This document shows positions 9,208 through 58,485 of a DNA stretch of 64,000 nucleotides, one piece after another. The DNA is taken from the NCBI GenBank assembly GCA_051294905.1, contig CM119371.1:26848001-26912000 (forward strand). Direction: 5' to 3'. The position numbers and the translations under genes were made by a program. This DNA comes from Botryllus schlosseri. Its lineage: Eukaryota. Positions within the stretch are counted from its first letter, which is position 1. The number at the start of each line of letters is the position of its first letter. Below the pieces are notes generated by a model. That model worked only from the letters and a program-made list of their open reading frames with translations. It did no database searches and was not told the origin of the DNA.

Positions 9208-9315
9208 TTAAAAGCTACCGTGCGGTAGAAGACCAGCTATTTCGTCACATTTCTAGTTCATGATGATAAAACATCGATCGTTGAGGATTTGTGAGAGAAA
9301 ATTGTGATTTGGTTT

Positions 9316-19998: not shown

Positions 19999-20250
19999 TT
20001 ATTCATCATCATAGTGATTGAGAAAACACACTAAGCACTTAGCGGCAACGAAGGTGATAAGGTACATTCCAGAGGCTATCATATATACATAGTAGTCGCA
20101 ATGGCGGATGGAGTGTGCCACGTCCTCTCCTGCGTGGTCTGCTGTTCCTTCTCGACATAGGTAGCGGCCCATCGCAATCCACAAAAATGTGAAAAACAAG
20201 CTCAGTAAGATGCCGCAATATATCATGGTATATCCTGAGAAAAGATTCAT
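19999..20250 (-). CDS. Copy 2 of unknown 2-TM protein family (terminal exon probably 19999-20234)
   Basis: 83-aa ORF with two hydrophobic segments, C-x18-C and DDE-stop. Colinear without indels with copies 3 and 4. Acceptor ttttctcag| at 20235. Confidence 0.8.
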   Translation of the reverse strand: MNLFSGYTMIYCGILLSLFFTFLWIAMGRYLCREGTADHAGEDVAHSIRHCDYYVYMIASGMYLITFVAAKCLVCFLNHYDDE

Positions 20251-21449
20251 GTTATCTGCAACGCAGCCGACTGAGAATAGGAATATTTAGCTGCATATAT
20301 GTACCAAAGGGGGCCAGTAACGATGTAGGCCTAATTCGAATTATGCGGACTCCTCAAAGTCGGCCTAACTGACTGCACTAGAGTCCGTGGTTCTGGTTCA
20401 GACAGCGTCGAGTTATCTAGGACAGATACTACTTTCAATTCATAGTTTTTTATGTAAAATAGTGGAAAACAGTCTTTGGGCTACTTGCTTATTTTCTCTC
20501 AATTCATTTTGTACGTGTACCGGAAAATAATTTTGATGGCTTTAGAATTGCTACTTTACTTGGATTCAAGTAAAATATACTGCGTTGCTCCATCTATTAC
20601 TATACTTGAGTTACAGCGTTGACTACCTTCCTTCACAACTTCCTACAACAGTGGTTCTCAGCAGCAAGTCGTTGCAAGCTTCCTGCGGGTCTGCAAGATA
20701 TACTAGACTTTTATATCTCAATTCCAAAAGGCAAGAAATCGGACGTTTGTTCATTAAAACACCAAACATCACAATTTAAACACTGAACATATTTTTCCAT
20801 GTGGCGTCTTAACGTGGAGTTCATTGTCTGTCTTTGGATTAGCGTACGACAGAATGCTGCAAGTCTTGTACGAAACTGTTTAAAATGAGCCTATCACGAG
20901 CCGTTAACGTGAAAGCTTAAAAAGATGTTTAAACAAAATTCGTTACATTAAGATGGTACAATTTAACGACAATTAGTAGTAAAATATAGAGGCAAGAGAA
21001 CAGCTGACTCGGATTTATTTCAAGGGAGACCAAATGATCAAACTCAGAAGTTGGGAGGTTTAATCTTCAAGAGAGCCGCTTATAACATGTTTAATGAAAG
21101 AGCAGTATTAAATAATTTCGAATATTTACTGATAGGTTGAATACTTTCGTTGTAAATTTGTCGGTCCGCACAGTTTATGTTGATGTTTCATACCGGTCCG
21201 CAAGATCAAAAAGGTTGAGAAAAACTGGCCGTCCTACTACAAGCGTTATATCTTATAAAGAGCAAACTTAAATACTTATCAGGCGTAGCCAGGATTATGT
21301 TACACAGCGTGAGATGCGATGGTTCCTTTATACATTATACCTTATAAACTGTTGCAGCATTTCACCAGAGTGTTTTGAATATAGATCAAAATCGATCATT
21401 TGTAGGTAACAAACGTTCATGCCCGTGTGTGTCAGACATAAAAGTAGAG

Positions 21450-22251
21450 AAAGAGACGCTTAGGAGTACAGAACTTCATAACACATTTGAATAAAATATT
21501 CATATTTATTCCCGAAGCTTTTCGGCTGACCCTCGTCAGGGGATAGCGTCAGCAGTATTGCGAGAATTCGAATAACTATGTTCAACAACAATATATATCG
21601 CTAATTATGACGTCACACAGAAAATATACAAAGTTAGGAAAACGAGAGAACTGGAGCGTTGGCATGGAGATAGCGAAGCAAAACAAGTTAATGCGCGATT
21701 TTCAAATGATGCACAAATTCTTTCTATTGGCATAAACTAGGTTTACTCATAGTGATGATGGTGGACTCAAGAACAGACAAATGAAATAAATTGCGACCCT
21801 TAGCCAATACAGAGAACATGTCCTCGTGGTAGTTAGCAGCACATGTATGATTTTCTAGTAAATGTTTGCCGATGGAAGATTTTTGACCCATGGCCTGGTT
21901 ATGTTCTAGAACAAGCCGATTGTTATGCTGCGATTTCGAGATATAAGATTTGACAGACGGTGGGATGTGTTCTTTAATACGGTCCTGCAACCGTTTGGAA
22001 GTTCTCCCTACGTACCGACAATCGCAGTGGCACTTGAATTCATTAATGACGTTACTTTGTTGTAAAGCAGGGAGAACGTCCTTTCGGGTTGCAGGAAACA
22101 TTGGTATCGTGGTAAAAACAACATTGGTTTCCACCGCTGGATAACAGCGATAGACTGCTGAAGTTATCTGTTTCTCAAATCGATAAGAAACCGGGCCAAT
22201 CCAAGATAGATGAATGTACAACAAAATATGAATATTTTATTCAAATGTGTT
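21450..22251 (-). mobile_element. 5'-truncated Penelope-like retroelement (GIY-YIG endonuclease fragment)
   Basis: ORF 21724-22224 has NVINEFKCHCDCRYVGRTSKRLQDRIKEH...SSIGKHL. A 30-bp inverted segment (21478 vs 22224) and a 12-bp TSD ataaaagtagag are present. Confidence 0.9.
21510..21542 (-). ncRNA. Minimal type I hammerhead ribozyme
   Basis: UCCC-CUGACGA-GG(GUCAG)CC-GAA-AAGCUU-C-GGGA: intact core and palindromic helix III, inside the Penelope terminal region. Confidence 0.8.
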
Positions 22252-22583
22252 ATAAAAGTAGAGGTGCCAGAGAAATAATGTTATATTCAATACTTCGCAA
22301 TATCTCCTACTTGTATCTTCACTCCCTAAATTTCAATAGAAAGAACATATTTATTTAAATCTGGTCATTATGCCAGAATCGTGGCTAAAAGCTTTAATGT
22401 TTCGAGATGCGAGGTACTATATGCAGATAATTTAAGACGCTAACTAACAGCAGGATGAATATTAAGAGAAAAATACCAATCAATATCATATTCTAAAAGA
22501 GGAAGCTGCGACTTAATTCTGCCAAGAATATTCAGCTGTGATTCATGTCATTGAATATGATATTTACGTTATGTGCATCTCAC

Positions 22584-22688
22584 CGTCAGATAAGTGAGGA
22601 AATATTCTTTGCTCCAAGAATGTGCCATAGCGATCAGGGTTCTGTCTTGACTCTCTTCTTTCGACGATTCTGGGGGATCGAGTCCTTT
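22584..22688 (-). CDS. Putative internal exon of copy 2 (105 nt, ...RYGTFLEQRIFPHLSD)
   Basis: Acceptor ttctattaccgatacag| and donor |gtgaga; 3-nt indel relative to units 3 and 4. Confidence 0.55.
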
Positions 22689-22992
22689 CTGTATCGGTAA
22701 TAGAATATGGCTAAGCGTTTCGCGCCCTGATCAAAACTTTACACACAATTAAAAACGGGTATAAATCAATCTTGTGACATTTTCAGGCAATACGTTTACA
22801 TTTCATCCCGATATAAGTTTAGGCAATGATCCATGCATACTAAATAACACGCTATACGAGCACTTTTGAATTCGACATAAAATCGGGAATCTCTTTGGAA
22901 CGAATATCTTGACCAGTAACTAACTATATCCGTTTGGCAACCGGGCCTGATATAACTAATGCGGTAAAACCGCGGGGAAAACATGTGCTCAC

Positions 22993-23028
22993 CAGTAATA
23001 GTTGCAAGGCACGCCGTCTCATTTATAA
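22993..23028 (-). CDS. Possible 36-nt phase-1 micro-exon (INETACLATIT); homologues in units 3 and 4
   Basis: acag| ... |gtgagc conserved in units 2-4; no homologue found in unit 1. Confidence 0.25.
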
Positions 23029-23044
23029 CTGTCAATGTCAATGT

Positions 23045-23120
23045 CCTATCAATGAAATCCGAGACCTATCAATGAAATCCGAGACCTATCAATGAAATCC
23101 GAGACCTATTAATGAAATCC
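23045..23120. repeat. 20-bp minisatellite (cctatcaatgaaatccgaga)
   Basis: About 4 units here and at ~57637; 2 units at ~48006. Confidence 0.9.
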
Positions 23121-23237
23121 TTTATACTACTGTTGTTAATCATCCGTAATGTAGACGATACATTAATGATTTCACTGCAGTATTTGTGAAACTGTTATCC
23201 TCTTTGAGGCATTTGAAGTCCACGAATGACCCACAAA

Positions 23238-23620
23238 TAGGGATGGTGTGAACGTGAGGTTCACGTTCGCGTTCTGTGTGTGAACCTAAGCAATTCGGAG
23301 GTTCTCGTTCACAAACGGTTCTGCACTGTGAACGTTTTTCTTGTATGACAATTTCCTTTTCCTACAACATATTTGGTTAAATTTTTCGCTTTTCAACTGC
23401 GGGCCACTCTATACATAGCGCTGGCAGCATAAAAATCAACACTTACCGAACATATACATTGACAATCTCAAACATTTTACTTGCTTTGTTACAAAGGTTT
23501 ACTCGAAATATCCATCTTTCCGTTTGCGAATATTTAGTGACTGTCTGCTGTGAGCTTGACCCGCAATGACACAGCATCAAGAGAGAAACACACCACGTGT
23601 TGTCAGCGAATGATGCTTAT
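23238..23620. mobile_element. Truncated TAGGGATGGTGTGAAC MITE (also ~48160 and ~57834)
   Basis: Left end matches the full copy at 37172-38458. Confidence 0.8.
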
Positions 23621-23831
23621 TGACCGTAAATTGACGGTAAATTCGATGGCATGGCTATTCAATATACTTTTACAAATAAGCATGCGTGACTGGAAAATGC
23701 CAAATAGTGTCCAATTACATTTTGAAATTAATTTTTGAACTTAGTTTGTACTCAGTTCCGCAAGCCAAATCGCTCAGAATGAAGCTCTTTAGGCCTACAT
23801 CCGAAACAAGCCCAAGCATTCAATCACACAC

Positions 23832-23901
23832 CATTAGAATCTTCATTACTGTGGTCTTCGTCTGAAGCTTCCTCAGCGGTGTTATCCACTCTTCTCCTCA
23901 T
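23832..23901 (-). CDS. Putative first coding exon of copy 2 (MRRRVDNTAEEASDEDHSNEDSN)
   Basis: Conserved ATG, 70 nt, donor gtgtga. Confidence 0.4.
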
Positions 23902-24204
23902 ATCGTTGGTAATGCAGCAACGAAAAGCTCAAGTTTAATAGGGAGCCTACTTGTTGAAAATAATAGGTTAAACTAGAGGATAAACAGGAATATAGTTATA
24001 TCTGAGTATGAAATACGAAGCAGGTAACCACAAACTTCGTGATGCTACTAACCACCGCACAGCAATACCGTAAAGCGTACGGAGAATGCTGTGTAGACGA
24101 TGCTGTGCGTTATGTTCGTCTGGTGTTGATTGCCAATGCGAACGGACCCAAGGTCAATAATTAGATGATGAAGCACCTGGAAGAAACATCTAATCACTAA
24201 TTAC

Positions 24205-25382
24205 TAGGGATGGTGTGAACGTGAGGTTCACGTTCGCGTTCTGTGTGTGAACCTCGGAAATTTAGAGGTTCGCGTTCACAACAGAACCTAGGTAGGTTCT
24301 GCACTGTGAACCTTTTTCATATACTACAATTTTCACTTCATTACAACATCGTTGGTTCGAATTTATTGCATTTTAACTGCAGGCCACTCTATATGCATGG
24401 CGCTATAGGCATAAAAAATCATCACTAAACGAGCATGTACCTTGACAATCTCAAAAGTTTTACTTGCTTTGTTGCAAAAGTTTGCTCGAAATATCCAACT
24501 TTCCGTTTGTAAATATTTATTGACTCTCTGCTGCGAGCTTGACCCACAATCACAAAACATCACGATCGAAATAAGCTACGTAAGCCTAGTCAGCGAATGA
24601 TGCTTATTCCACTAATCAATCTAGCAGGCGTATGGGGTCAATCTTTACTTCATATGATGTTACTGGATCATTAAAACCAAATCGGTGCGATTGAGGCGTT
24701 GGCTACTGCTGTATAACTTGTTAACGGGGTAATATCGAGAGCAAGTATAGAAACCCGTTTCACACTCTGCTCAATATCAATGTAGCAATACTCAGACGCC
24801 GAATACATTTTCCGATCCGTCATACGAAAAAGGTGACTCGAGTCTGACTTGAGTCAAGTCATGACTCGAGTCATCCCAACCCTGCTACAAGGCTATAATC
24901 TGCATCTTCCTTGCCCGACGGCATATGCACATCATGTAGCCTGCTCATGGTATGCATATACGCAGATCGTGTGTATGTATATCATGAGTCGGTGTATATG
25001 CCGCAAGAACATCAAAGACAAAAATAAACTACGTCCTTTCCTTCCCTTATATTCCCTGGTAAGTCCTCGTCAAAATTGTTGGCAAATCGACGGAAGATAT
25101 TGATTTTATGAGATTATTATATCATTTGATTGCCCCAGTTGATACATTTGGCGACGTTTAAAACGTCAATATGTATTTCAGCATTGTGACGTAATGCTGC
25201 CCAAATCGTCGCTAGGTATCGTGTACATTAATATAGGCTATCATTTCATTGAAGGATAGGTTGGAATTAGCAATATGACGTCCCGTGACGTCATGAGGTT
25301 CACGTTCGTGTTCACACAGAACCTTTCAAAAAGGTTCGCGTTCACACGAACCAGAACCTTTTAGAGGTTCACACCATCCCTA
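24205..25382. mobile_element. hAT-type MITE (TAGGGATGGTGTGAAC TIRs), specific to unit 2
   Basis: 16-bp TIRs; imperfect TSD ctaattac/(ca)gtaattac; empty site at ~2800 and ~49130. Confidence 0.85.
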
Positions 25383-26244
25383 CAGTAATTACCTTTTCAA
25401 AAACGTTATTCCGGTGATGTACGTTCTGGTCAGAAGTTTGCCCAATTCACAAATTATCTAAACACGATAAGGTTAAAGTAAGAGTTTTACTGTGTTTTAT
25501 ACAGTTAGGGTTGTGTCTAAAACAAATGGTGTTTTAAACAACGGCCTTTCAAAAAAATGTGTTTCGAAGCTATAAAATCATGCCATAATCGTGTAACTAC
25601 TTTCCAAAAAACATGTTGTATGGGCCTACGGAAATTTACGAAGTGAAGTATACGATATTGGATGGTTGGAACCCTCAAAATAGTCGGTTCAACATCTATA
25701 GTACGTATATATTTCGTCTAAGTAGCTATATTAACCCTATATTTTCATTTGTCAAGGTCAAACCACTGTGACGTCACAAATGAATATTCGTGACGTCATG
25801 GTTTGAAGAACAAACAAAAAATAAAAAACATATTTTAAACAAGGGCCTTATTTTAAACATGTTTGTTTCGAAATGATTTTTGTTTTAAATGCAACAATAT
25901 ACACAGTTATATCCATGCTATTAGTAGGAAAATATATATCAAGAAGAGGTTAGGTAGTTTTTCCAGTAAATGACCCGTAACTGGTCATATTTATACGTAA
26001 ATCGACAGTACCAATAAGATCCGAGGTCAAAATTTGTCTATAGGAATATCTTGGATGTCTGTTGCCGTTCTCTTCGACTTCCCAGTACAGGAAAATGTCG
26101 TTTCGGACTCGAGAATGTGAGCATAGCGATGGGAGACATTCATACACTTGGGGGCGCCAAAAGCTCGTCCTAGTGATCCATTGTTTACATTGGATACCGA
26201 AAGAAACGTCGTCTTGATTTGTTGTCTTTCGACATCCCTAGCGT

Positions 26245-26560
26245 AGCTGGTTGGAAGTCAAGTGCCTCTGCACTGTAAAGGATGACCTAATAACACCTGG
26301 AAAGTATTTTCCATATTTGATGATTGCTGCAGATGGCTATTATCTGAAGAAAAATCACAGATGGTATGCCCAAGTACAAGGCCAAATGACTTGCGCTTGT
26401 ATGAAGCTATATGTTGTTTTATGCATATATTTCGTTATGTGCACATGGAAAATATAGAGTTTGAACCATAATTTGTTCCTAAATTTAGGATTCTGAAGTT
26501 GCAAAAGTTCTACGAAATGTATTGGCGTCCCTTTTTGGTGGTCAAGATTGTGTCACCACA
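26245..26560 (+). pseudogene. YqaJ-like exonuclease relic of the ISL2EU element
   Basis: LEVKC...YYLKKNHRWYAQVQGQM motif; frameshifted. Confidence 0.8.
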
Positions 26561-26949
26561 AGACGAAAAACTGAAAACTGCTGAATGCAATGTAGCGTTG
26601 AATACGATTTTTTTGTGCAAAACCGTTCATGCCGTCGTGGTGATTATTGTTATTTCCAAATGCCATGCTTCTTTCTGTTGATTACGTAGTCTACCTATAT
26701 ATTGGGAGTTTTTATGTATCTCGTTTAGTAAATGAAAACAAAACTTGCGTCTAGGTAGTGATATGTTTTCTGTTCAGTCATCAAATCCAGTACAGTGATA
26801 TTCCGGTTTATTATGGCGGCATCAATATTGAAGTGGGAGCAAGAAAATTCATGCAACACTAATAGTAATCAATCATTATCACTAAACAAGTCTGCTTCAG
26901 CAAACACAAAATATTAAAAGCATCAAATGCTGTTATGTAGGTCTATATC

Positions 26950-28189
26950 AAAGTATTTCTTTCCTAAATTTAAAAATCATAAAGCAGAAAAAGGCTATTT
27001 CATTTTTCAAATGCAACAGATTGTAAGGCAAGACAAGGTCTACATGTTTTGAGGGATGGTGTAATCCCCTACCCGCTGTTCCTGAGAGAGCCGAGTCATG
27101 CCTTGCATCAAAGTAGGGGTGTTGATTTTCACATCGAATGGTGCAAACAAACCTTGCAGTAGGTATCCTTTATCAGCCATGATACTGTCGCCCTTTTCAA
27201 ACATTGCTCTGGCTTCGGCCAGCAAATCAGATTGCTCAATAATGCTGCGGTCACTAACGGATCCACCATAGCAGTCACTTATGAAGGAGACAGCACCCGT
27301 GGGTGCATTACCAATTAATACTTCCATGGTATTTCCATTCTTTCAAGTGGAGAATGGAACGGACTGTGCAGTGTGCATGAATATCAGATGGCTTCTCAAT
27401 TGGGATTTCTGTTGAGTCAATAATTATCTCGTTGATGGATATAGTTTTTTAAATCATCTGGCATGGGATCCAATATTACTTGTTTTGAAGGCGAAATTAG
27501 TAATTTTGATAATAAACAGTACATATGCTTGATCCAAGCAAGCATTAATGATGCGGGAAGCTGTTGATTCTGAAACAATACCAAGCAGTTGATGATCAAG
27601 AGCTTGATTAGTGTCAGAAAAACTTGCTCTTCATTTGAACACAACGTACAGGTGTTCTCCAATAGATGAACATCGTACATTGCAATGTCCTTTAAAAGCA
27701 GAAACTGGTTGATGTCATCAAATCCAGTAAAGTACCATGCACTGCTTTCTAATCATCCTTGATATTTTCTAAACTGAAAGCTGGCATTGAAGCACCTAGT
27801 TGGCACTGAATGCCCATATTTTCTGTTTGAAATTTCTGGTCACTATGTGTTCCAGAATGAATTATTTCAGTAGGTTCTGGTGTAAATGGGTTCAAATTGT
27901 TTGTCTTCCTGACAATTTTTAGTGGCGTTCTTTTATCATGCTGAAAGACTGATGGGACTGCCTCCTGTCTATCAAGTTTCATGTTCGGCTCATATAATCA
28001 CTTGGAAAAAAATTACCATAGCAAGCAATGTCTCTGCCCTCTGCCCAATGTCTCTGTCCAAAGCTGTTTCGTTTTGGAGTTTGATCTCCTAATTGCTACT
28101 CTCCATTTCATCAGCTTCCCTGGTAACGCAGGAATCAAATGACCACCAATCCAACTCGTGCAACCAGGTACACAGCAATATCGTGGCAT
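26950..28189 (-). pseudogene. THAP plus DDE_Tnp_4 transposase relic
   Basis: MPRYCCVPGC...AVPSVF (THAP); LIGNAPTGAVSFISDCYGGSVSD...GDSIMADKGY (Harbinger-type DDE); frameshifts. Confidence 0.85.
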
Positions 28190-28705
28190 TTTATAATGTA
28201 GATAGATGATAATACAGCCTATTAAAATGAAATATACATGTCACTCAGCTAATATTAAAACGCCACTCTATGGAAATGAAATACCGGTACACGAAGTAAC
28301 CTGGCAATTCATAAATTGCACTGAACTCAATCATCAGTCGTAAATATGTTTAAACGCCGTACACACAAAAGAATAATCCTGTTACCCGAATCCAACAGGC
28401 AGTGGCGGACCTGGTGTCTAGGAAATAAAGCTGTAAGTTTTGTTTGTTTACTACGGACTATAGGACGAGGTGTTGGCGCCCAAAGTGGTTTGTGAATGTC
28501 TCCCATTACTCATCCTATAGGTAGCTCAGATTCATTGTTGGTATGTCATTGCCAAACCGATGACCTCGAATTATTTACGTTATCGTTTCGATATGTCGTC
28601 ATTGGCTGGATCAGTTCCTGAAAACAAGACACCAGAGAGTACAAATCGCGCCGAGGCGGAAAAATGTTCAAATTGATCAGACAGCGGCCCCCGAATGGCC
28701 TATAT

Positions 28706-38458: not shown

Positions 38459-41400
38459 CTGTGTAATGATTTTGCGATCCATTTTTCATGCAGACCTCGT
38501 GAAATCGATTATCTCACTTAGGATTCACTACCCGGTTAACCGGTTAGCTAAATTCCAAATATACGGATATATCCGTTATCCGGATAGTGAAAATTATTGA
38601 TATCCGAACTAACCCTAGTTGAGAACCAATGCCTTAGAATTATCACGGTGAAATATACTAAAAAAAGTTTAATCAGGTCCCTGAATTAATTCGATTTTTA
38701 GTACGCATATTATCAATATTTTTAATAAGTTTCTTTAGACTCTCGCGGGCCGCACAGAAAGGTGTTGTGGGCCGCATGCGGCCCGCGGGCCGTAGTTTGC
38801 CCACCCCTGGTTTAAAGGGTCAAGTCCGAGTCATGGTGTTATGACTCGAGTCGAGTCCAAGTCACAGTATTGAAGTCATGTTCAACTCATGTTTTCAATC
38901 CTGCTTGGGTGATATCGAATTCCCTGTTTGCGAAACATGCTCATTTTGTCCCTATCAGAGTCTTGGCACGTGTTTATTTCGGCAGATAACGGACAGGTCC
39001 TGGCCTCATTTACCGATGCTAAAGATAACTTTACTAATCTTAGAACTTAAAATCAAATATCTCTCTTGTCAGTCTGATACATCACCAATACAAGCATTCA
39101 GTTTTTATTATGAACACATCGACGATAGCTCACGAATAGCTGATAGAGAACCAACGAATTCACGTCTACATACTATCTGATAGAGAACCAACCAATTCAC
39201 GTCAAGATACTAGTTGATGGAGAATCAATAGATGCATGTTTGTAGAGGTATTTACAACAGACCAGCATGCTGTAAAAGCGTGCATGCAACTATGTGCATT
39301 GTGCAGTGACAACAGAACAGATACCTTTTGATTATACTAAAGGTTTTCCCAAATGCATTACCGACTACATCGCAGTGACAGCATTGGAGAAATAATTGTA
39401 CAATGGGGCTGTTCCAAAACATTTTTTCAAATTTTCTTGCTACTTCTTAAAATTGCTAGATTGCCTAAAAATCAAATTTGGCTCAATTCCAACCAGTAGA
39501 AAGCAATGCTATGAAAGAAAATTTTAGACTAATTACAAATAGAGATTTTCGAATTTTACCGGCTATCTCATGATATTGTTACATTGTGTAAAAATATGAT
39601 TCATAGCAAATTTGACTCAATTCCAACTAGAAAAAGTGAAGTTATTAGAGTAGAATGTTTTGGATATGAAAAAATAGTCGGCTTACTGCTATGTAATTAT
39701 ATTATATGAAAGAATTTCTCACTAAAACACTCCATTTATTTTCAAATCCAGAATATTCTCCTCTCAGATCATTGATTCCACTTTTTTCAAATTAAGCCAG
39801 ATTCAGTGTTCCTTTTATGCAACATAACAATTTTATCATGTAACCACCCAGTAAAATAAAAAAGAAGTTATTTTAGAACAGCCATATTGTACAAACATCA
39901 CACAACATTAGCCATTCATTATTACTCACGTGCACAATGCACATACTTAACAAAACGTCAAATGGACGAAGGGCATTGTGTGTTTTCACATACAGCAGAT
40001 CAAATCAATGAGTTACACCTCAAAAATACTAATGTGGAAAGGAGATCCTCAAATATGTTAAAGCGGCATGGCCGTAGAAGGAATCCACATCTACTGAATA
40101 CACGTTACACTAGTGCACTAGATGCAGGAATTGACAAGCATTTTTGAACCACACTGAAGAGCATTGAATACTCATTCTTTCTAGTCGCCCAAAAATGCAA
40201 AGAATCATCGATTTCAAATCTACACATGAGTTTATCAGTCTCTTCACCATCTGAGTCATTTCATTGGCTCTAATTGAACTTTGATTCAATTGTTTGCTTG
40301 TATAATAGAAAAGTCTTGAGTACTTTAATTGCGGAGGATCTATTACCTCTTCATCACTGGACGATTTTGTACAATGCATTGCTACTATGTATCATTTTCT
40401 GTTGTTTTTACGGCGGCATATCTGATATATGAGACAAGTGCAACGAAAGCAGTGGTGACAAATAGCGATGTCGGCAGAATTCGTCGGATGCGTTGATCTA
40501 GCCATTATGATTCGCAAATTTCTTCATCTTCAAGTCATATAAAATAAGCCGAGTCAGTGACTTGGGTCGAGTCATGCGTACTGACTCGAGTACAAGTCGA
40601 GTCAATCCAAATATTGTCTCGAGTCGAGTCGAGTCATTTTCCCATTTCAAGAAAATGACTCGAGTCAAGTCGAGTCATAAAAAAATCGTGACTCGAGTCT
40701 GACTCGAGTCGAGTCATGACTCGAGTCATTACAACCCTGGGTTATTCCAGTTCATAAAAAAGGCTGCAAAAACTCAATGTCTAATTACCGTCCTATATCT
40801 ATTCTGTCAAACCTTTCCACTCTATATGAGAAATTGCTAGATTATAGGCTCAAGAAATTTTTTGAATTGCAATCGGTATTCACCCCATCCCAATTTGGCT
40901 TTATATCGGGTCATAACAATAACCATGCCACCCTATCAATTGTGACAAATTACTACAAAATTATTAAAGATAAAAGAGTTGGCTGTAGTATCTTTATTGA
41001 TCTTCGGAAAGCCTTTGATACTGTGAACCACGAGATACTGATACGAAAACTAGAGCATTATGGAATTAGAGGGATTGCCAAGTCCCTGCTCACGAACTAC
41101 CTTGCAAACCGTAAGCAGTTTGTGAAATTGGGTCTGTCAAAATCGGTAGAAATGGATGTAGAGTGTGGAGTGCCTCAGGGCTCAGTTTTAGGACCGACCC
41201 TATTTTTGATCTACATCAATGATATTATCAACTGTTCCTCCTTTTATACTCCACTGTTTGCCGATGATACCCATCTTTTTCTTTCATCCGATACTATAAG
41301 CAACCTAGAAAGTTCTGTGCAGAGTGAACTTACAAAAGTCTCTCAATGGCTTGCTGCTAACAAATTAAGTTTAAATACCGATAAAACTGTGATGATGCTC

Positions 41401-42750
41401 TTTAATACTGCTTCTGATAACCTTACTGTGAATCTAAATAATAACTGTATCTCACTGTGTGACTCAGCAAAATATCTTGGAATCATCATTGACTCTAAAT
41501 TGTCATGGAAACCGCATATTGCTCATACCATAACACAGCTTTCTAGATGTGTAGGTGTAATGACAAAACTCAAGCACATAGTTCCTAGATCTGTGCTTAG
41601 GACAATTTACTTTTCGCTTTTTTACTCGTATGTACAGTATGGCATAATTGTATGGGGGAATGCTTGTACTTCACATTGTTCTAAAATTCGTACCCTGCAA
41701 AACCGAGCCATGCGTTTGATGGCTGGCTTGCCCCATCGAACAAGATTATCCCAGTACTACCGCAAATACAATATTCTATAATTTGGCGATATTTTTACAC
41801 TTGAAGTAGCTAAATTTATGCATCAATATTTTTCAAATGAATTGCCTCCTGTGTTCAATGATTTCTTCGTCCTTGCTCAAACTGTTCACTCACACAATAC
41901 CAGATTTTCTTCCCAGGGCAACATCTATTTTCATCGACCCACCAGTAACCTCACAAAGAAATCGATCGACTATGCCGGTCCTGTCATATGGAATGCTATA
42001 CCCTCTTCAATACGGGACCTCCCATACCACTCCTTCAAAAAGGAATTATTCAGTCACCTCATCACCCATTACCAATGATCCGCTTGTCTCCCACCAAATT
42101 TGTAGTTTCTTTAGTATTTTATTTTCATGCTGAGCTGAATTGATTGATCCCAACCAATGCATCCAAATTTATAACACAATATCTGTATTTGTTAATGCAG
42201 GGTGTGATCAGACTAGTTGACCCTACCCAGAGTCATATCGGTCACACCCTGTCCTATACCGTAAGTTCATTTATTGTTGTTGCATGTGCCAATGATGTTT
42301 TCTTTACGGTTGGACAAATCAATAAATATCTCTCTCTCTCTCTCTCTCTTCTTTTATGAGGATTTGTCCTCTTTTTGAGACGTTCGGTTAAATATAGGGT
42401 TAACATTCGACTGAGCTACAGTAAATCAGCGCTGAAGTAACGTTGCAGCGGCTATTTCGAGAGATGAGCCGGAAAGTTGACCTTTTTTATAGTCAACGAA
42501 CGGACAATGTGAAGAAAAATATGTATTTCTGGAGTTGAGCGGGAAAGTTGACCTATTTTCTGTTTTTAGTCAACCAACAACGAAGTGGGAAAAATTCACA
42601 TTAAAAAAAAAAATTTCCCAGGTATTGTAAGTCTGAAAATTTTGAAAAAGTGTCCTCTTTTCAGACTTCCAAAAACTGGTAGCCCTAGTCACAGTGTATA
42701 CAAGCCTGATGCAATTTAGAGTGGTCTTAATATAGTACAGTAAATAACGT

Positions 42751-42986
42751 TTATTCATCATCATCGTTATTGACAAAATACACTAAGCACTTAATGACAA
42801 CGAATATGACAAGGTACATTACAGAGGCTATCATATATACGAAGTAGTCGCAATGACGGGTGGAGTGTGCCCCGTCCTCTCTTGCTTGGCCCGCGGTTCC
42901 TTCTCGACATAGGTAGCGGCCCATCGAAATCCAAAATAATGTCATAAACAAGATCAGAAAGACGCCGCAATGCATCATGGGAAAAC
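42751..42986 (-). CDS. Copy 3 of unknown 2-TM protein family, terminal exon
   Basis: ORF 42751-42978 is colinear with copies 2 and 4. Acceptor ttttctcag| at 42987. The upstream ATG of copies 2 and 4 is out of frame here. Confidence 0.8.
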
Positions 42987-43895
42987 CTGAGAAAAGATTC
43001 TCATGTTTCCGAAACGCAGTCGACTGAGAATAGGAATATTTAGCTGCATATATGTACCAAAGGTGGTCAGTAATGAAGTAGGCCTAATTCGACTTATTCG
43101 GGCTCCTCAAAGTCGATTTAACTGACTGCACTCTAGTCCGTGGTTCGGTTTCAGACAGCGTCAAGTTATCTAGGACAGCTACTGCTTTCAATTCATAGCT
43201 TTTTGAATAGTGGAAAACAGTCTTGGACTACTTGCTTATTTTCTGTCTATTCATTTTGTACTTCTACCTGAAGCAATTTTGAATGCTTGAGAATTGCTAC
43301 TTTACATGGATTTAAGTAAAATTTACGGCGTTACTCCGACTACTATACCAGTGGTTCCCAACCTTTTTCGACTCATCGCCCCCTTTTGAAGCTCCACATG
43401 GATCATCATCCCCGAAATATTGGGCACCGAAAAATGGGCATACAAACTGGGATCGCCGACGAGTTGACTAATTAAAAAAGGTCAACTTTTCGGCTCGACC
43501 TCGAAATTTCACTTCCACAGCTAAATATTCGTGAGTTGACTAAATAAAAGGTCATTTCTCCGACTTGACACCAATCAGGACCATAACAGCCCTCGTCAGC
43601 CCCCCCAAATAAAAACGTAAGTCTTTGGTCCCATAGGGTGATAAGCCAAACCCCAGACCTCCTTAGCTAGTGGGCTTTTCGTCGCTACATATCAGCTATA
43701 CCCTATTTCATGTACTGTTTGGTGAGTCATCGTATCTCGCCTAAACGCGCGAAAAGTTTATATAATTCATGTTTGAATCGGTCAATGTGGTCGGGAATTG
43801 CATATATATTGCTATCTATTTTTTTATCCTCTTTCTGCTCACGTAATGAGACTTACCGGTAGAGCCGAGTGTGGTATGTTGGAAAAGGTATAGGA

Positions 43896-45411
43896 TAGGG
43901 TTGTCATACGTCCGGAATTTATCGGACATGTCCGGAATTTCATTGTTAAAACTGCGTCCGGGAGGAATTTCCAAAATATGCCTAAATGTCCGGAATTTTG
44001 AAGACTTGAAGTAAGTTCATAATTCTTTCCTGAATCAACATAAACGATATTATTTTTGAGAAGATTTGCGCAACATGAAATTTTTCTTCGCGCTGCGCGC
44101 GATTTAGTATAACACATATTGCGTTTAATATGGGGACAACCACCCTCGCAAAATAGCATTCATTTACAGAAATAAGTTTAATTGTAATCGCAGTTTCAAG
44201 ATAACGGTAAATTAATTGAGTCGGTTTAGGCCGTTTGGATGCTTTATTCAAAAATAGTGGTTCTAAATCTAGGGGAGTTTGCCTTTATTCTGGGGTTCGG
44301 CAAGATGTTGAACCTTAACAGCTTCCAAAATAGGCCGTAGTAAGCTGGGCAAATGTGCCACCCTTTAATTTGTAATCAAGTTATCAAATTTTTGAGCTGG
44401 GCCACGGAACATTTTCAAATTGCAAATGGATTCATGACCATAAAAAGTTGGAAATCACTGGATATGCGGTGATTGTATAGGTAAGTGGGAAGCGAGGGGG
44501 GTAGTTGGTTAAGCACCAGCGCCACGACACCAATGGCAGTGGTTCGAATCCCGGTTCGGACTAACTTCTATGTGTTAGAGGTTATACGGGCTCCTCATCG
44601 CCGACCTCACCGCCATTGCGGTGAATTAAAAAGCTCAGATATGACAGTGGGTCGAGCAATAAGTCGACGATAAAGAACCGATGAAAGCCTTAAAGATACA
44701 GAGACTGCTGAAAGAGCGCACGGGCGATTGAACATGAAGAAATGCATTGACCTGTGTGATAAAATGTGATGTAGTGGAGCACAAAGCCCTAATCGGGCTA
44801 TAAGCACCACGGTTGTATGTTGCTCCCCGGGTTATGTGTGTATCTACCAGTTTTACTGTGAATAAAGAAATATTAATATAGGTCAGTGGTGTGGTGCGCA
44901 CCGGCATTAGGCTGATAAATAATCCTATCGGTGTGACATGATCACGACGATCTACACGATGTACAATCACGGTCCTTGCATTTTTGAAGTCATCATTCTC
45001 CACCAGCTCTATACCGCTAACTCTGATCATGTGGGCGAAGAGAGGATCAAATTATAGAGTAAATAGGGAAAAACCAATATTCATTCAAATAATTTCACGA
45101 CCATATGCATATAGAAACTAGATGCACATGGTATGCACCCAGAAATTACATCGATTATACCCTACGGTGGGCCCAAGATCAGGGTTTGCTTGGGCGGGAG
45201 TGGGCTGAAAAATGTGACTTCGGCCCTGGTTACAAGTTACACACAACCACATATACTCCTCAACCGGATTGTGACCAACTTTAGTCGATAGACAAAGCTT
45301 TGCTGGTGTGACGTCATATTGATCGACAATATGCTCATGCCTCATTTTGAAATCCGCTGGGAGGCGCTAAAGAGCGTCCAGAATTTGTGTTACAAAAATA
45401 TGGTAACCCTA
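43896..45411. mobile_element. TAGGGTT(G/A) hAT MITE nested in 43349-46109
   Basis: tagggttgtcata...tatggtaacccta; perfect TSD gtatagga. Confidence 0.88.
44487..44876 (+). mobile_element. SINE with family-A tRNA head and a different 3' body
   Basis: gggaagcgag...gttcgaatcccggttc; TSD tataggt(a/c)agt. Confidence 0.8.
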
Positions 45412-47202: not shown

Positions 47203-47538
47203 ATAAAAGTAGAGGTGGCAGAGAAATGATGTTATATTCAATACTTCACAATATCTCCTACTTATATCTTCACCACCTAAATTTCAATATAAAGAACATA
47301 TTTAATTAAATAAGGTGATTATGCCAGAATCGTGGCTCCAAGTTTTAATGTTTAGAGATATGAGGTAGCCTACTATATGCAGATAATTTTAGACGCCACT
47401 GACAGCAGGATGAATATTAGGAGAAAAATACCAATCAATATCATATTATAAAAGAGGAAGCTGCGACTTAATTTTGTCAAGAATATTTAGCTGCGATTCA
47501 TGTCATTGAATATGATTTTTATGTTGTATGCATCTCAC

Positions 47539-47646
47539 CGTAAAAGAAGCGAGGATATATCCTTTGCTCCAAGAATGTGGCAGAGTGACCAGGGTTCTGT
47601 CTCAACTCTCTTCTCTCATCGACGATTCGGGGGGATCGAATCCTTT
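47539..47646 (-). CDS. Putative internal exon of copy 3 (108 nt, ...HSATFLEQRIYPRFFY)
   Basis: Conserved acceptor and donor; open frame. Confidence 0.55.
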
Positions 47647-48757
47647 CTGTATCGGTAATAAAATATGGCTACGCATTTCGTGTCCTGATCAAAATTTTAC
47701 ACACAATCAAAAACGGGTATAAATCAAACTTGTGACATTTTCAGGCAATACGTTTAAATTTCTTCCCGATAACAGTTTAGGTAATGATCCATGCATACTA
47801 AATAACACGATATATGAGCACTTTGAAATTCGACAGAAAATCGGGAATCTCTGTAGAACGAATATTTTGAGCAGTGGTAAACTATATACGTTTGGCAACC
47901 GGGCCTGACGTAACTTATGCGGTAAAACAGCGGATAACACATGTGCTCACCAGTATTAGTTGCAAAGCGCGTTGTCTCATTTATAACTGTTACCGTTGTG
48001 GCGAGACCTATCAACGAAATCAGAGACCTATCAATGAAATCCTCTATACTACTGTTGTTGTTCAGCCGTAATGTTGACGATACATTACTGATTTCACTGC
48101 AGTGTTTCTGAAACTGGTATCCTCTTTGAGGCATTCGAAGTCCACGAATGACCCACAAATAGGGATGGTGTGAACGCGGGGTTCGCGGTCTCGTTCTGTG
48201 TGTGAACCTCAGCAATTTGGAGGTTCTCGTTCACAAACGAACCTTGGTAGGTTCTGCACTGTGATCCTTTGTCATATATGACAATTTTCATTTCGTAACA
48301 ACATCTTTGGTTGAATTTTTTGCATTTCAACTGCGGGCAATTCTATGCATAGCGCTGGCAGCATAAAAATCAACACTCACAGAATATGTACCTGGACAAT
48401 CTCAAAAATTTTACTTGCTTTGTTACAAAAGTTTACTCGAAATATCCATATTTCCGTTTGCGAATATTCAGTGACTGTCTACTGTGAGCTTGAGCCGCAA
48501 TGACACGGCATCAAGAAAGAAACACACTACATGTAGTCAGCGAATGATGCTTATTGACGGTAAATTCAATGGCATGGCCATACAATATACTTTTGCAGGT
48601 AAGCATGCGTGACTGGAAAATGCCAAATAGTGTCCAATTACACTTTGAAATTAATTTTTGAACTTAGTTTGTACTCAGTTCCGCAAGCCAAATCGCTAAG
48701 AATGAAACTCTTTAGGCCGACATCCGAAACAAGCCCGAGCATTCAACCATCACTCAC

Positions 48758-48827
48758 CATTAGAATCTTCATCACTGTGGTCTTCGTCTGAAGCTTCCTC
48801 AGCGGTGTTATCCACTCTTCTCCTCAT
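48758..48827 (-). CDS. Putative first coding exon of copy 3 (MRRRVDNTAEEASDEDHSDEDSN)
   Basis: ATG plus consensus donor g|gtgagt. Confidence 0.5.
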
Positions 48828-51615: not shown

Positions 51616-52506
51616 TAGGGCGTTTTTTTGTTTGACCTAAAAAACGGAATATTTTGACCTAAAAATCATAATTTTGACCTTTTTTTACCTAAAAAAACTG
51701 AATTTCGACCAAATTTTGACCTCACGTATGCAAATTAGGTGTTTTCGCACATAATGTGAAAATTGTACTATATATCTTCATTTCTGGTTATAACTGTCTG
51801 TCCTTACGAAGTATTTTGACCTGAAAACACTTTTTTTGGCTTGAAAACTGACAAATTTTTACATGATAAAAACTAGTATTTCTACAAAATCTTGCCTTAT
51901 GACGAATTCCAGTAGTTACATCACGAATTATGGTAGAAATAATTAAAATTTGTTGTAGTACAACGAAAGATACTTTCCTACATTCTCGGGTAGAAAGTGT
52001 CTGTCCTTACTTAGTAGCTTGTCAAGAATGGAGAAGGAACGTTCGGCAGCAGCACTTTTCGCCTTTTTGGCTGACAACACTGAGGTTGTGCGTACACTGC
52101 TGGTGACACACCGTGTTGCTTCATTTTGAAAATGCTATCTACATCACAATTTTTCATCATGCGCTTCTTGATATAAGAAGCATGCAATGCCCACGCAGTC
52201 TTGCTTCAGTTAGGATATAGAGGCACATTGAACAAACACCACGTCAGCCTATTTGTTTCGTTTGAATATTTATGATTAACAATGAGTAGACAATGGGCCG
52301 TCTACAACGGTAGGCCTATAAGGTAGGCTACAAGCTGTAAAATGTCAAATAATAAGTTCACCGACAGTGCAAAATCTATGATACAAACGAAATGCCGGTT
52401 GCAAAAAAGTTTCAACTTTTTAAACAATCTTGACATTTTTTCACCTAACGCTACAATTTTGACCTAATTTTGACTTTTTTTGACATGTCAAAAAAGAATC
52501 GCCCTA
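51616..52506. mobile_element. hAT-type MITE, paralogue of 32407-33294
   Basis: Same site and sequence; tagggcg...cgcccta termini. Confidence 0.85.
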
Positions 52507-53407
52507 GTCATCACGAAATCATCACGGTTCTTGATTGGCCAATCAGCTATGCTTCAATGATCATGGCAGCAACCGCTTGATGATAAGGTGTTCAAGGAGT
52601 CTGCTAGTGGCGGTGATTCTGAAAGCGCATTGTAGGTTGGTTGTCAAATAATGAGTTAGGCTTAATTCAGGGTATGTTGAGTTACGAAATACTTGGTGAA
52701 CAAACAACAGCTGCCTCACAAAAGCTTCTAAAGCATGACCGCTTTATTGTGAAGAAAACCGCTGTATCCTGCATGCCTTGATTTCACCGAGGGAAAGCAA
52801 AGAATCCGTAGGCGCTCATGCAAGTGGCGAACGAATTGCTCGTTTCAGAAAGAATCCATCATCATTGAATACAAATATAAAGCTTAACAATGACTCTACA
52901 CTTTGTGTGATCTTATTGGGCTCAAGTTGTATTTCATAAATTGACTTATTGAATGCTCTTCGGCAGAATCAGCCGGTTATGCTTGGCACTTATCAGATGC
53001 TTACAGCAAATTGAATTCACTGGTAAGTGTTGTCGAAGTCCTTAATGATGACGAGGAAAAGTGGTGTAAATGTAAGCACATGACTACGCAGCATGTGATA
53101 TCCATACTATGCGGGCTATAACGCAGAGCGAATGTTCGTAGATGTTATACTTGTGTAATCTGACTCTAAAAGGTTACTTGTTGCATTCGTTGCGTATATC
53201 TTTCCGTTCGACTGACCGGCAATCCACGCCGTGGATTGCCTCGTTGGCTGACGTACCACGAAGCATGTCTATTGCACACGTATTCGAAGATCACACGGAC
53301 GAATGTTTTGTTTCTGTCTCCACGACTTGTAGATTTATTGAATCAACGTACGACGACGTAATATCTTTTCTATCATATATTGAATTGAATTGAATATCTA
53401 TCTACGC

Positions 53408-55242
53408 CAGGGGTGGGCAAACTTTTGAGCCAGCGGGCCGCCTTCAACATGTGAATCCATTCGCGGGCCGCACTATATAAAATTGGGATTATAAACGAAA
53501 ATGCCATATTAGTAGTTGATTATATTGTGAGGACATGGATATAATGTATATGCTTATTTAAAACAAACCAAACATTACTTAGTTATAATCGTACAGCGTC
53601 AGAATCAGTGGCGAGATTTCATAGGCTGGTTAACCTCAATAACCAATTTGTCAAAACTATAGAGATGCCAGTCGGTTTTCCCGATTCCTAGAACCTTATT
53701 GAAATTTAGATCTGTGAGCAGCGATCTGTTCATTAGGGCTCTTCAAAAATGACTTTTTTTCTCAAATCGTATGGCTACTTGATAAAATTGTTAGGTTACC
53801 TAATTTAAGCCTACACACAAAATTTTGTTCAATTCCAGCCAGTAACCGCTTTGCTACAGGAGAAGTAAGTTTCTATTTATTATATAAAAATAAATGATAA
53901 AAATTTGAAAATTTTCTGTTCACCCCATGAAAGTGTTAGGCTGTCTATAGAAACGATGCTCACCAAATTTGGTTCAATTCCAACTAGTGGAATCAGAGTT
54001 ATCGCCGTCGAAAAATTTGGATTTGAATAAAATAGTATTTACTGTGAGCACAACTGTAATAAATAAATGAAGAATCGGTCACCGTAAATACTATTATATT
54101 CAAATCCAAATTTTTCGACGGCAATAACTCCGCTTCCACTGGTTGGAATGGAACCAAATTTGGTGAGCATCGTTTCTATAGACAGCTCAACACTTTCATG
54201 GGGTGAACAGAAAATTTTCAAATTTTTTATCAGTTATTTTTATATAATAAATAGAAACTTACTTCTCCTGTAGCAAAGCGGTTACTGGCTGGAATTGAAC
54301 CAAATTTTGTGTGTAGGCTTAAATTAGGTAACCTAACAATTTTATCAAGTAGCCAGTAAGATTTGAGAAAAAAAGTCATTTTTGAAGAGCACTACTGTTC
54401 ATAGATTTACTAATTCCACTTTTGGTTCAGTTCAAGGCCACAGAATGCTGACAGCATCATAACCATGTTAGCTTCTAACACACTTCTACTGTGTGTTGAT
54501 AAAATATAAATACCCAAATCCTACGGATATAGAGAACGAATCTTCCTAAGACACGCACGAATCTTATTTTATTAGCACATCACTAAAATAATTAAAACTG
54601 GAGTCGCCAATCTGAAATCACTCTCGTGATCCGAATTATGTAAATCTCGTTTAGGATTGCTGTGATGTTTAGCAGTTGAAACCTTTCAAACTGCGTGGGC
54701 CTTCATATCGGGCTGTCGCGCCAGAAACTGAACATGAAAAATAAAATAGGAAGTATTTACCTTTGAACAGTGGTTACCAAACTTTTTAGGTGATGGTGAA
54801 AGATTTCGTGCCCCTTCTCGTCTAATCGCAAAACTCAACCAGGATGCTAGCAAACCAAATGGATAGTTTGATGGCATGAAAGGTTACGACTGTAGATGAG
54901 AGATTTTTAATTATGAAATTGATACTAAATGCAGCGCAATGACTATGAACTGGAAGTAAATCGCGCGGAGCGCGAACATTTTTTTAGTTGAGCTCAGCTT
55001 CGCGCCCTCTTCAGATGCTTTCACTACCCAAGTGGGGCACATCCCCCAGTTTGATAACCACTGCGTCAGAATTATCATGGTGATATATACTAAGAAAACG
55101 TTTATTCAAGACCCTGGATTGATTCGATTTCTAGTGCACATTTTATCTATGTATTTAATAAGTTTCTTTAGACTCCCGAAGGCCGCATATAACGGTGTTG
55201 CGGGCCGCATGCGGCCCGCGGGCCGTACTTTGCTTACCCTCG
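53408..55242. mobile_element. Charlie-like composite MITE, same family as 35118-38809
   Basis: caggggtgggcaaac left end; TSD atctacgc/atctgcgc; internal sequence colinear with the other copy. Confidence 0.88.
53734..54394. mobile_element. Foldback (palindromic) MITE with ~310-bp arms
   Basis: 53734-54042 is a near-perfect reverse complement of 54084-54394; TSD ctgttcat; empty site at ~35440. Confidence 0.92.
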
Positions 55243-55795
55243 ATCTGCGCTGTATTACAGTCGTATATATATCATAGCCACGAGAGAGTACATGCACCAA
55301 ACATCGTACGATTTATTTCTCTTATCTTTATTCACACGAATCACAAAGGGCTTATCGGGTTTTCCCTTCAGGGAATTAGGTTATGTTTTATAACATTCCT
55401 CATTGATCACTATTCAAATGACGTTAACATAATATTTCGTTAAACTGGCTACTTTGCAGCACGGGCTTTGCTGATAGGCAAATAAATGTATTTTTCAAGA
55501 TGTCTTCCCTTCAACCAAACATCTCCTTATCCTAAGATAACTAAAAAGACGACGAACTACCCGAAATCCGCATGGAGAAATCACTTATTTTTTCAGTAAA
55601 CTTCGTTGTATAAATTTCAAAATCACCACGTCTGCTATAGTAAATTGGAAAAGTGTACTCCTTTACGGGTCTCTAAATATGGTGACCCTGTATTGGGAGA
55701 TATTTCAACGAACCCCCAGATATGGCGTGTCCTGTCCAAACTTGTGGAATCGGTGCGTGGTCTTTGAACATGAATTTATCTGCATATACTGAAGA

Positions 55796-55927
55796 AGAGC
55801 TTCTTAGAGGTACAGAACTTCAATATGCAATTGAACAGCATATTCATATTGAAATGACGATTACCCTTGACGAGTGTCAGCCGAAAATATTCGGGTTCAT
55901 TTCAATATGAATATACTGGTCAATTGT
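55796..55927. mobile_element. 132-bp Penelope-derived mini-insertion with a hammerhead-like core
   Basis: TSD atatactgaaga; start resembles 21450 (gtacagaacttca); inverted arms around accc-ttgacga-gtgtcagcc-gaa-aatatt-c-gggt. Confidence 0.75.
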
Positions 55928-56354
55928 ATATACTGAAGAGTATATATTAGGGTTACCATACTTATTTTATAAGGATTCGTCCTCTTTTTTTGAGAATTTC
56001 GGCAAAATATAGGCTAAAATTCGACTGAGATACAGTAAATCTGCACTGAAGTAACGTTCTGGCAGCTATTTCAGGAGCTGAGCCGGAAATCTGACCTTTT
56101 GTTTAGTCAACTAGCGGACAACGTGAAAGAAAAACTGTGTTGAGCGGGAAAGTTGAACTTCTTTATTTTAGTCAACCGACCAAGAAATGGGAAAAAATGA
56201 ATTTTTTTTTTTAATTTTTCACCGGTATAGTGAGTCTGAAAATTTTGAATAAGTGTCCTCTTTTTTAGATTTCTAAAATATGGTAACCCTAGTCACAGTG
56301 TATACAAGCCTGATACAATTTAGAGTGGTCTTAATATAGCACAGTAAATAACTT

Positions 56355-56606
56355 TTATTCATCATCATCGTTATTGCCAAAATACACTAAGCACTTAGCG
56401 CCAAAGAATATGACAAGGTACATTCCGAAGGCACTCATATATGTGACGTAGTCGCAACGGCGGACGGAGTGCGCCACATCCTCTCTTGGTTGGCCTGCTG
56501 TTCCTTCTCGACATAGGTAGCGGCCCGTCGCAATCCACAATAATGTGAAGAATAAGATCAGTAAGACACCGCAATACATCACGAAGTAACCTGAGAAAAT
56601 ATTCAT
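56355..56606 (-). CDS. Copy 4 of unknown 2-TM protein family (terminal exon probably 56355-56590)
   Basis: 83-aa ORF colinear with copies 2 and 3; acceptor ttttctcag| at 56591. Confidence 0.8.
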   Translation of the reverse strand: MNIFSGYFVMYCGVLLILFFTLLWIATGRYLCREGTAGQPREDVAHSVRRCDYVTYMSAFGMYLVIFFGAKCLVYFGNNDDDE

Positions 56607-57171
56607 GTTATCTGTAACGCAGCCGACTTAGAATAGGAATATTTAGCTGCATATATGTACCAAAGGTGGTCAGTAACGAAGTAGGCCTAATTTTACTTAT
56701 TCGTACTCCTGAAAGTCGGTTCAACTGACTGCACTCTAGTCTGTTACACAGCGTGAGATGCGACGGTGCCTTTATACATTATACGTTATAAACTGTTTCA
56801 GAATTTAACCAGAGTGTCTTGAATATTGATCAAAATCGATCATTTGTAGGTAACAAACGTGTGTGTCAGACATAGAAGTAGAGGTGGCAGAGAAATAATG
56901 TTATATTCAATACTTCACAATATCTCCTACTTACATCTTCACTCCCTAAATTTCAATAGAAAGAACATATTTAATTAAATCGGATAATTATGCCAGAATC
57001 GTGGCTACAAGCTTTAATGTGCAGATAATGTAAGACGCCACTAACAGCAGGATGAATATTAAGAGAAAAATACCAATCAATATCATATTATAAAAGATGA
57101 AGCTGCGACTTAATTTTGCCAAGAATATTTAGCTGTGATTCATGTCATTGGATATGATTTTTGCATCTCAC

Positions 57172-57279
57172 CGTCCAATATGTGATGAAATCTCCTGAGC
57201 TCCGAGAATGTGGTATAGCGACCAGGGTTCTGTCTTGACCCTCTTCTTTCATAGAAGATTCTGGGGGATCGAGTCCTTT
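57172..57279 (-). CDS. Putative internal exon of copy 4 (108 nt, ...RYTTFSELRRFHHILD)
   Basis: Conserved acceptor and donor; open frame. Confidence 0.55.
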
Positions 57280-58415: not shown

Positions 58416-58485
58416 CATTAGAATCTTCATCACTGTGGTCTTCGTCTGCAGCTTCCTCAGCGGTGTTATCCGCTCTTCTCCTCAT
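58416..58485 (-). CDS. Putative first coding exon of copy 4 (MRRRADNTAEEAADEDHSDEDSN)
   Basis: ATG plus consensus donor g|gtgagt. Confidence 0.5.

Follow-up and report, generated by a model that had tools for sequence, protein, structure and literature searches.

Exons more divergent than their introns in the chimeric copies of a predicted membrane-protein gene array of Botryllus schlosseri

In venom phospholipase A2 (PLA2) genes, exons evolve faster than introns. Exons seldom outpace their own introns, and genes in which they do are usually in conflict (immunity, reproduction or venom) or are neofunctionalised, conversion-resistant copies. Passages of PMC3924837 describe peaks of exon divergence under gene conversion for exon 5 of the human red/green opsins and for colobine RNase1B, together with the Teshima-Innan model, and passages of PMC6062510 describe accelerated evolution, with KA/KS above 1, of duplicated venom genes encoding secreted toxins. 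Here we analyse a 64,000-nucleotide window of Botryllus schlosseri DNA (C1:26,848,001-26,912,000) holding four of the six tandem copies of a gene for a predicted small membrane protein, the other two lying just beyond the window end. In the four middle copies (copies 2-5), two of the three predicted exons are more divergent than the introns of the same genes.

Like the opsin and RNase1B genes, as the relevant portion of PMC3924837 presents them, these copies are tandem paralogues with low intron and high exon divergence, a pattern read there as selection against conversion. In contrast to those cases, the present array has six copies, and the homogenisation of introns is backed there by between-species orthologues whereas the data here come from one genome. 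Fast coding change after tandem duplication is shared with the venom genes in the PMC6062510 passages; unlike the venom toxins, the array product is a predicted membrane protein, and its ratio of non-synonymous to synonymous rates (dN/dS) is about 1-1.5 and non-significant. The array also resembles HERC5/6, for which a section of PMC7775381 reports a chimeric duplicate from unequal crossing-over, in that a chimera, its 5' part taken from one neighbour and its 3' part from the other, lies between its parents, and in that the 3' part diverges, but here the chimera was amplified to four copies and an interspersed repeat stands at the junction.

Two further families are similar in part. The IFITM/CD225 (dispanin) proteins, according to portions of PMC3499546, are likewise small, with two hydrophobic segments and lineage-specific tandem duplication, and have been positively selected. 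The Fester family of Botryllus, in the parts of PMC12582321 and PMC3549757 that concern it, is likewise a tunicate cluster with copy-number change and recombination. Fester combines immunoglobulin (Ig) and Sushi domains with three transmembrane (TM) helices, and its TM half is 91% conserved and its ectodomain variable in the excerpted PMC12582321 account. The array protein, in contrast, has two predicted helices and the reverse pattern: its two hydrophobic segments, rather than being a conserved C-terminal half, are the fast part, and the loop is conserved. No Fester-type Ig/Sushi ectodomain was found in any of 126 minus-strand frames of 38 residues or more, a scan that short or divergent exons could escape and that left out the regions upstream of copies 3 and 5.

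Exon and intron divergence among the copies

Exons 2 and 3 were significantly more divergent than introns 1 and 2 in five of the six pairs among copies 2-5 (14-19% vs 6-10%, p from 0.005 to 1e-8), the non-significant exception being the pair 3-5 (p=0.37). Mean divergence among these copies was 15.5% in exon 3 and 16.3% in exon 2, compared with 8.9% in non-coding DNA, whereas exon 1 (4.0%) varies less than the introns. None of 21 non-overlapping non-coding windows of 236 columns was as divergent as the terminal exon, and only one of 48 windows of 105 columns was as divergent as the internal exon. Even the intron windows adjoining the exons were only 7-8% divergent, including those of the 581-nucleotide intron 2 of copy 4. 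The excess survives the removal of any one copy (every trio, p at most 3e-4). The original prediction that exons outrun neighbouring non-coding DNA thus holds for exons 2 and 3, which lie outside the spread of the flanks, and fails for exon 1.

The counts behind that prediction were largely reproduced. Recounting the open reading frame (ORF) gave the same 41/252 nucleotide and 26/83 amino-acid differences between copies 2 and 4, and 39/249 nucleotide differences between copies 3 and 4 where about 39/250 had been given. The 40 nucleotides beside the donor of the internal exon are indeed variable between copies 2 and 4, at 9 positions instead of the roughly 11 claimed.

Chimeric origin and later exchange

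Copies 1 and 6 have diverged by 31-39% along their whole length. Copy 4 is close to copy 1 in exon 1 (7% divergent) and remote from it in exons 2-3 (41-43%); relative to copy 6, exon 1 is 44% and exons 2-3 are 13-18% divergent. Copies 2, 3 and 5 show the same two-sided affinity. Copies 2-5 are chimeras, with a copy-1-type 5' end, a repeat and a copy-6-type 3' end, and copies 1 and 6 are two old neighbours, the putative parents of the chimera that still flank the array. The switch of type is located in intron 1, at an interspersed repeat of 370-400 bp that stands in place of about 330 bp kept in both copy 1 and copy 6. This repeat, which has 2467 candidate places in the genome, is a candidate mediator of the crossover. 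In reading order the array runs copy 6, four chimeras, copy 1; because this is the expected product of unequal crossing-over between two tandem neighbours, the chimera likely arose in that way. In the anti-Lepore globin arrangement, too, a chimera lies between the parental genes after unequal crossing-over. Non-coding distances place the origin of the chimera at about 15% divergence and its amplification at about 9%. The locus is a clean record of new genes arising via chimerism and amplification, with both parents apparently still beside the array.

The array is plainly a recombinant mosaic. Informative sites are clustered (103/122 neighbours agree, against an expected 54.9; p=1e-4), and since they occur in runs, exchange among the copies continued later. 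Shared tracts join copies 2 and 4 in intron 1 and copies 5 and 6 at the 3' end, and copies 4 and 5 are 96.8% identical over a 1.1-kb tract (60560-61636 vs the upstream region of copy 5), which is likely the result of a recent conversion or crossover. The caveat attached to the original prediction, that conversion of the flanks could mimic the pattern, was therefore justified.

Selection on the reading frames and alternative explanations

The reading frames are maintained by selection. As had been claimed, no disrupting indel or stop is present: exons 2 and 3 of the five close copies contain zero frameshifts, compared with 8-12 expected from flank indel rates, and a single in-frame codon loss. 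All five copies remained stop-free in only 3/5000 neutral simulations at the exon tree length and 36/5000 at the intron length.

Codon models, in our own implementation and applied to 5 sequences of 35-113 codons, gave M0 dN/dS values of 1.02 for exon 3, 1.52 for exon 2 and 1.04 for both exons. The differences had been described as mostly non-synonymous; this count stands, but it is what dN/dS of about 1 predicts, and the differences between copies 2 and 4 fall 13/13/13 by codon position. A codon model calibrated on the introns rejected equality of exon and intron, with an excess of 1.9-2.0x among copies 2-5 (p about 1e-7) and 1.45x with copy 6 added (p about 1e-3). Provided that exons and introns share one history, the replacement rate exceeds the non-coding reference by 1.8-2.4x (p at most 3e-4). 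Models of faster replacements (dN/dS 1.99) and of an older exon (rate 1.89) were equal in fit, and in a joint model (rate 1.50, dN/dS 1.35) neither added significantly to the other (p=0.09 for rate, p=0.21 for dN/dS). By exon, the joint rate and dN/dS were 1.04 and 2.21 in exon 2 and 1.62 and 1.20 in exon 3, so that exon 2 leans towards faster replacements and exon 3 towards an older exon. Divergence at four-fold sites was 10.3%, near the intron level, whereas a pure older-exon model expects 16.9% (P=0.06-0.07 in the fitted simulation; P=0.04-0.05 in a preliminary one using approximate branch lengths); the amino-acid model was compatible with these sites (P 0.22-0.81). Because the simulation leans against a pure older-exon model and the exon-only test against a pure dN/dS of 2, the honest reading is a mixture of accelerated amino-acid change and of older exons that escaped conversion, in inseparable shares.

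Taken together, the exon excess is real, and we incline to the view that selection favouring differences between copies, likely but unproven, acts in the chimeric copies of this orphan membrane-protein array. Unequal crossing-over between two old neighbours would have produced a chimera that was then amplified to the four middle copies. Selection would have contributed in two ways, by speeding up amino-acid change (joint dN/dS ~1.35, and ~2.2 for exon 2) and by preventing conversion from overwriting divergent exons (silent rate ~1.5x introns). If the opsin-type argument, as the relevant part of PMC3924837 gives it, applies, both would amount to selection for difference.

The change is unevenly distributed over the predicted protein. 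Among copies 2-5 the excess was 2.1x in TM1 (p=0.012), 2.6x in TM2 (p=2e-4) and 2.3x in exon 2 (p=2e-4), p values that are uncorrected for the several regions tested, whereas the Cys loop showed no significant excess (1.4x, p=0.29; 0.98x with copy 6). This distribution speaks against the suggestion that the pattern is typical of recognition genes, the p values for the loop ranging over 0.15-0.94. The single outside relative, P0001, agrees with the five close copies at 18-23/26 loop residues and at only 9-12/24 in TM2. Tolerance of hydrophobic swaps could account for variable helices, but not for a rate exceeding that of introns. The loop and one helical face likely form a fixed scaffold, the other faces and a cytosolic segment having been driven apart after duplication by partner specificity or conflict. 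Tentatively, the protein might be an N-in, C-in hairpin scaffolded by a conserved disulfide loop, with the variable helices and the cytosolic segment adjusting its contacts with a membrane partner, much as defence or gamete proteins do. A bolder version, which we regard as unlikely, is a tunicate-specific hairpin family in which a repeat-junction chimera was amplified and is now caught in an arms race at two sites, the membrane interior and the cytosolic side; the juxtamembrane exon and the helices would diversify, and the outer disulfide loop would stay constant. Were this true, the family would parallel, in an invertebrate chordate, the restriction factors recognised via membrane helices or, alternatively, would supply accessory subunits of a new class for gamete or self/non-self recognition.

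Several observations weigh against selection for difference. Exon excess was seen in none of the four pairs with copy 6 (exons 15-16% vs introns 14-16%). On the tree it is confined to the branches of copy 2 (17/341 exon vs 18/986 non-coding sites) and copy 4 (24/341 vs 24/986) and the stem of copies 3 and 5 (11 vs 5), and copies 3, 5 and 6 show none. Introns are low, as predicted for the flanks, but the 3' flank, an average 13-15% divergent and mosaic, matches the exons in several pairs. The intron distances were taken from columns aligned by BLAST and may be underestimates, and silent divergence of the terminal exon is raised too (proportion of silent differences, pS, 0.14-0.15). The diversifying selection originally considered finds support in an excess that is robust and beyond the flank distribution, but not in dN/dS, which no site model puts significantly above 1 (M2a/M1a p=0.36-0.73, M8/M7 p=0.22-0.63, M8/M8a p=0.15-0.43). 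The exon-only test detects a true dN/dS of 2 in 36/50 simulations, and the observed value was 1.23, with a likelihood-ratio statistic of 0.71; the joint model can do without dN/dS above 1 when it includes a rate factor (p=0.21). Finally, the exon model is sequence-based only, and the topology is a prediction.

A neutral history is the best surviving alternative, though rather unlikely. Recombination and conversion would have homogenised the non-coding DNA of copies 2-5 and left the two exons by chance in older tracts under relaxed constraint (dN/dS ~1), selection acting on no more than the frame, hydrophobicity and some core residues. The runs of informative sites and the shared tracts in intron 1 and at the 3' end fit such a history, as do M0 dN/dS values of 1.02-1.04, a likelihood as good as that of the amino-acid model and an exon distance among the chimeras equal to their distance to copy 6. 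However, it requires that two separate exons both fall in old tracts although the intron separating them was homogenised, non-coding windows at the exon level are almost lacking (0/21 and 1/48), and silent sites fall below its prediction (P=0.06-0.07).

It is improbable that the excess is an artefact of local alignment keeping conserved intron parts, of constraint on introns or of faster mutation in GC/CpG-rich exons. The non-coding columns were drawn from BLAST chains, CpG-context sites are more variable (30/65 in exons), and the contrast between copies 1 and 6 (39% vs 31%, p=0.014) is limited to alignable non-coding segments. Yet the excess remains at non-CpG sites (24.3% variable in exons vs 14.8% in non-coding DNA, p=1.7e-4), so that CpG hypermutation is rejected as its sole cause, and it is present in both AT and GC site classes; exon 1, similar in GC to the other exons, is not raised, and 3,400-5,100 non-coding columns give 8-9%. 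It is very improbable that the gene encodes an allorecognition or self-incompatibility receptor of the fester or Themis kind, with highly polymorphic alleles maintained by balancing selection. In favour of this reading, the host is a tunicate, the array shows birth and death with intergenic recombination as the PMC12582321 excerpts relate for the Fester family, and copy 6 has a fibrinogen-like gene 1.8 kb upstream. Against it, the scanned frames hold no Ig or Sushi domain, the gene model has no signal peptide, the loop is the conserved part, fibrinogen-like matches are common genome-wide, and contig pieces from two public runs are near-identical to copy 4 (2/180, 4/160 and 0/142 differences, among the 16 pieces listed of 210).

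Gene model, predicted protein and surroundings

A search of the 495.5-Mb genome with the terminal-exon protein gave six matches, all on the minus strand within 77 kb. One predicted three-exon model fits all six copies, with an exon 1 of 70 nucleotides from the ATG, an exon 2 of 105-111 and an exon 3 of 236 (copies 2-6) or 293 (copy 1); the gene may also have additional 5' exons or use another acceptor nearby. Both introns are in phase 1, with AG acceptors and GT donors throughout except for one GC donor in copy 6, and the only frame open in all six copies is that of this model. An unbiased scan for conserved open AG-GT segments recovered exon 2 in 5/5 alignable copies. The ORF originally reported is probably a spliced terminal exon, because in copies 3 and 6 indels break the frame directly upstream of the shared acceptor. 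The terminal exon of copy 1 represents an old lineage (~40% nucleotide divergence from the other copies). In four sparsely sampled RNA runs (3-13% of each read, at 90% likeness), depth was 0-0.15 in the exon-2 bins and no predicted exon joint was among the 15 joints listed of 56, and two further runs yielded 0 reads at 80% likeness; these results carry no weight either way on expression.

Table 1. Features of the array in window numbering, extended past 64,000 for copies 5 and 6
Feature	Position	Strand	Remarks
Copy 1 terminal exon	463..755	-	two predicted helices, Cys loop, poly-Asp tail
Copy 1 exon 2	1277..1387	-	phase 1-1, AG/GT, open
Copy 1 predicted exon 1	2452..2521	-	ATG to donor, 70 nucleotides; 7% divergent from copy 4
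Copy 2 terminal exon	19999..20234	-	
Copy 2 exon 2	22584..22688	-	shorter by one in-frame codon
Copy 2 junction repeat	23235..23621		interspersed repeat, intron 1
Copy 2 predicted exon 1	23832..23901	-	
Copy 3 terminal exon	42751..42986	-	
Copy 3 exon 2	47539..47646	-	
Copy 3 junction repeat	48158..48555		interspersed repeat
Copy 3 predicted exon 1	48758..48827	-	
Copy 4 terminal exon	56355..56590	-	
Copy 4 exon 2	57172..57279	-	the internal exon of the original prediction
Copy 4 junction repeat	57840..58205		copy-1-type on promoter side, copy-6-type on other
Copy 4 predicted exon 1	58416..58485	-	
Copy 4 array-specific upstream block	58486..60560	-	possible promoter and 5' untranslated exons; one interspersed repeat inside
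Copy 5 terminal exon	64807-65042	-	
Copy 6 terminal exon	77012-77247	-	

Other open segments accompany the model. One candidate for an additional coding exon is a 124-nucleotide AG-GT segment that lies upstream of exon 1; by our reading of the alignments copies 2-5 keep it open, but copy 1 has a stop there and in copy 6 the segment is degenerate. A segment of intron 1 is an open frame in copies 3 and 6 only and includes a 20-bp minisatellite at 23045-23120 (3.8 copies), 48003-48041 (2) and 57637-57712 (3.8). A second minus-strand frame of about 70 codons over the terminal exon (20039-20251, 42791-43000, 56395-56607) is open in copies 2, 3, 4 and 6 and has one stop in copy 5. No Pfam domain was matched in the copy 4 upstream block.

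The predicted proteins are 136-157 residues long, with a charged N-terminal stretch of 60 residues, no predicted signal peptide, and two hydrophobic segments, of which only the second exceeds the threshold in copy 1. They also have a loop of 25 residues, two of them invariant Cys, and an acidic tail, which a GAT trinucleotide run (467-506) lengthens in copy 1. AlphaFold models a helical hairpin with modest confidence (pLDDT, predicted local distance difference test, 68; pTM, predicted template modelling score, 0.40); the N-in/C-in topology and the loop disulfide are putative, and the family is predicted to be an orphan small two-pass membrane protein. The family protein gave no Pfam match over the cut-off and no Foldseek match in the PDB at E up to 0.001; no homologue was found among longer proteins or in metagenome contigs, and an atlas comparison gave no match for copy 4. 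Among 1.84 billion representatives, the only relative was the unnamed 59-residue P0001, P0002 and P0003 being rejected as repetitive low-score matches. Bacterial MurJ fragments matching copy 1 (0.91, 151 shared features) were rejected as generic helix pairs. Membership of IFITM/CD225 was likewise rejected: no PF04505 match occurs at the array, and the CD225 genes of this genome sit on C13 and C4. Those on C13 form a large IFITM/dispanin-like cluster, with 33 of the 34 genome-wide matches on C13 (~12.6-16.2 Mb and 22.6 Mb) and one on C4, and the C13 cluster is possibly an expanded defence family.

No account of such a tunicate family was located in the literature, and three family motifs were missing from the text of one Fester supplement (figures and other supplements not covered). 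Within the searches made, the gene family appears undescribed, and its evolutionary pattern is already well known. The value of the locus is that of a lead, selection and function both being unproven: it flags an unannotated tunicate family as a candidate for conflict or conversion-resistant neofunctionalisation.

Upstream of copy 1, a ~5.8-kb tandem duplication at 5611-17573 (7694-11741 vs 13541-17573, 97.5% identical) holds a fragment resembling a long interspersed nuclear element (LINE) and part of the array upstream block; it is a recent duplication or an assembly artefact. About 1.8 kb upstream of copy 6, on the minus strand like the array, lies a gene with a fibrinogen-C domain (C1 about 26,931,600-26,932,470; pieces L011:9600-9932 and L012:77-469), which was rejected as a Themis-like partner because a single copy lies close to the array, whereas the genome as a whole has at least 150 such matches. 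The units also contain mobile-element remains: GIY-YIG-like at 21724-22236, DDE_Tnp_4 with a THAP-like part at 27040-28240, a weak PHD match at 45118-45366 and a hAT dimerisation region at 62020-62319. A LINE-like reverse-transcriptase frame of 353 residues lies on the plus strand at 40720-41781 (PF00078, E=1e-34). Elsewhere in the genome, a cellulose-synthase catalytic exon, which among animals is a marker of tunicates, was found on C9 (piece L023:1291-2175).

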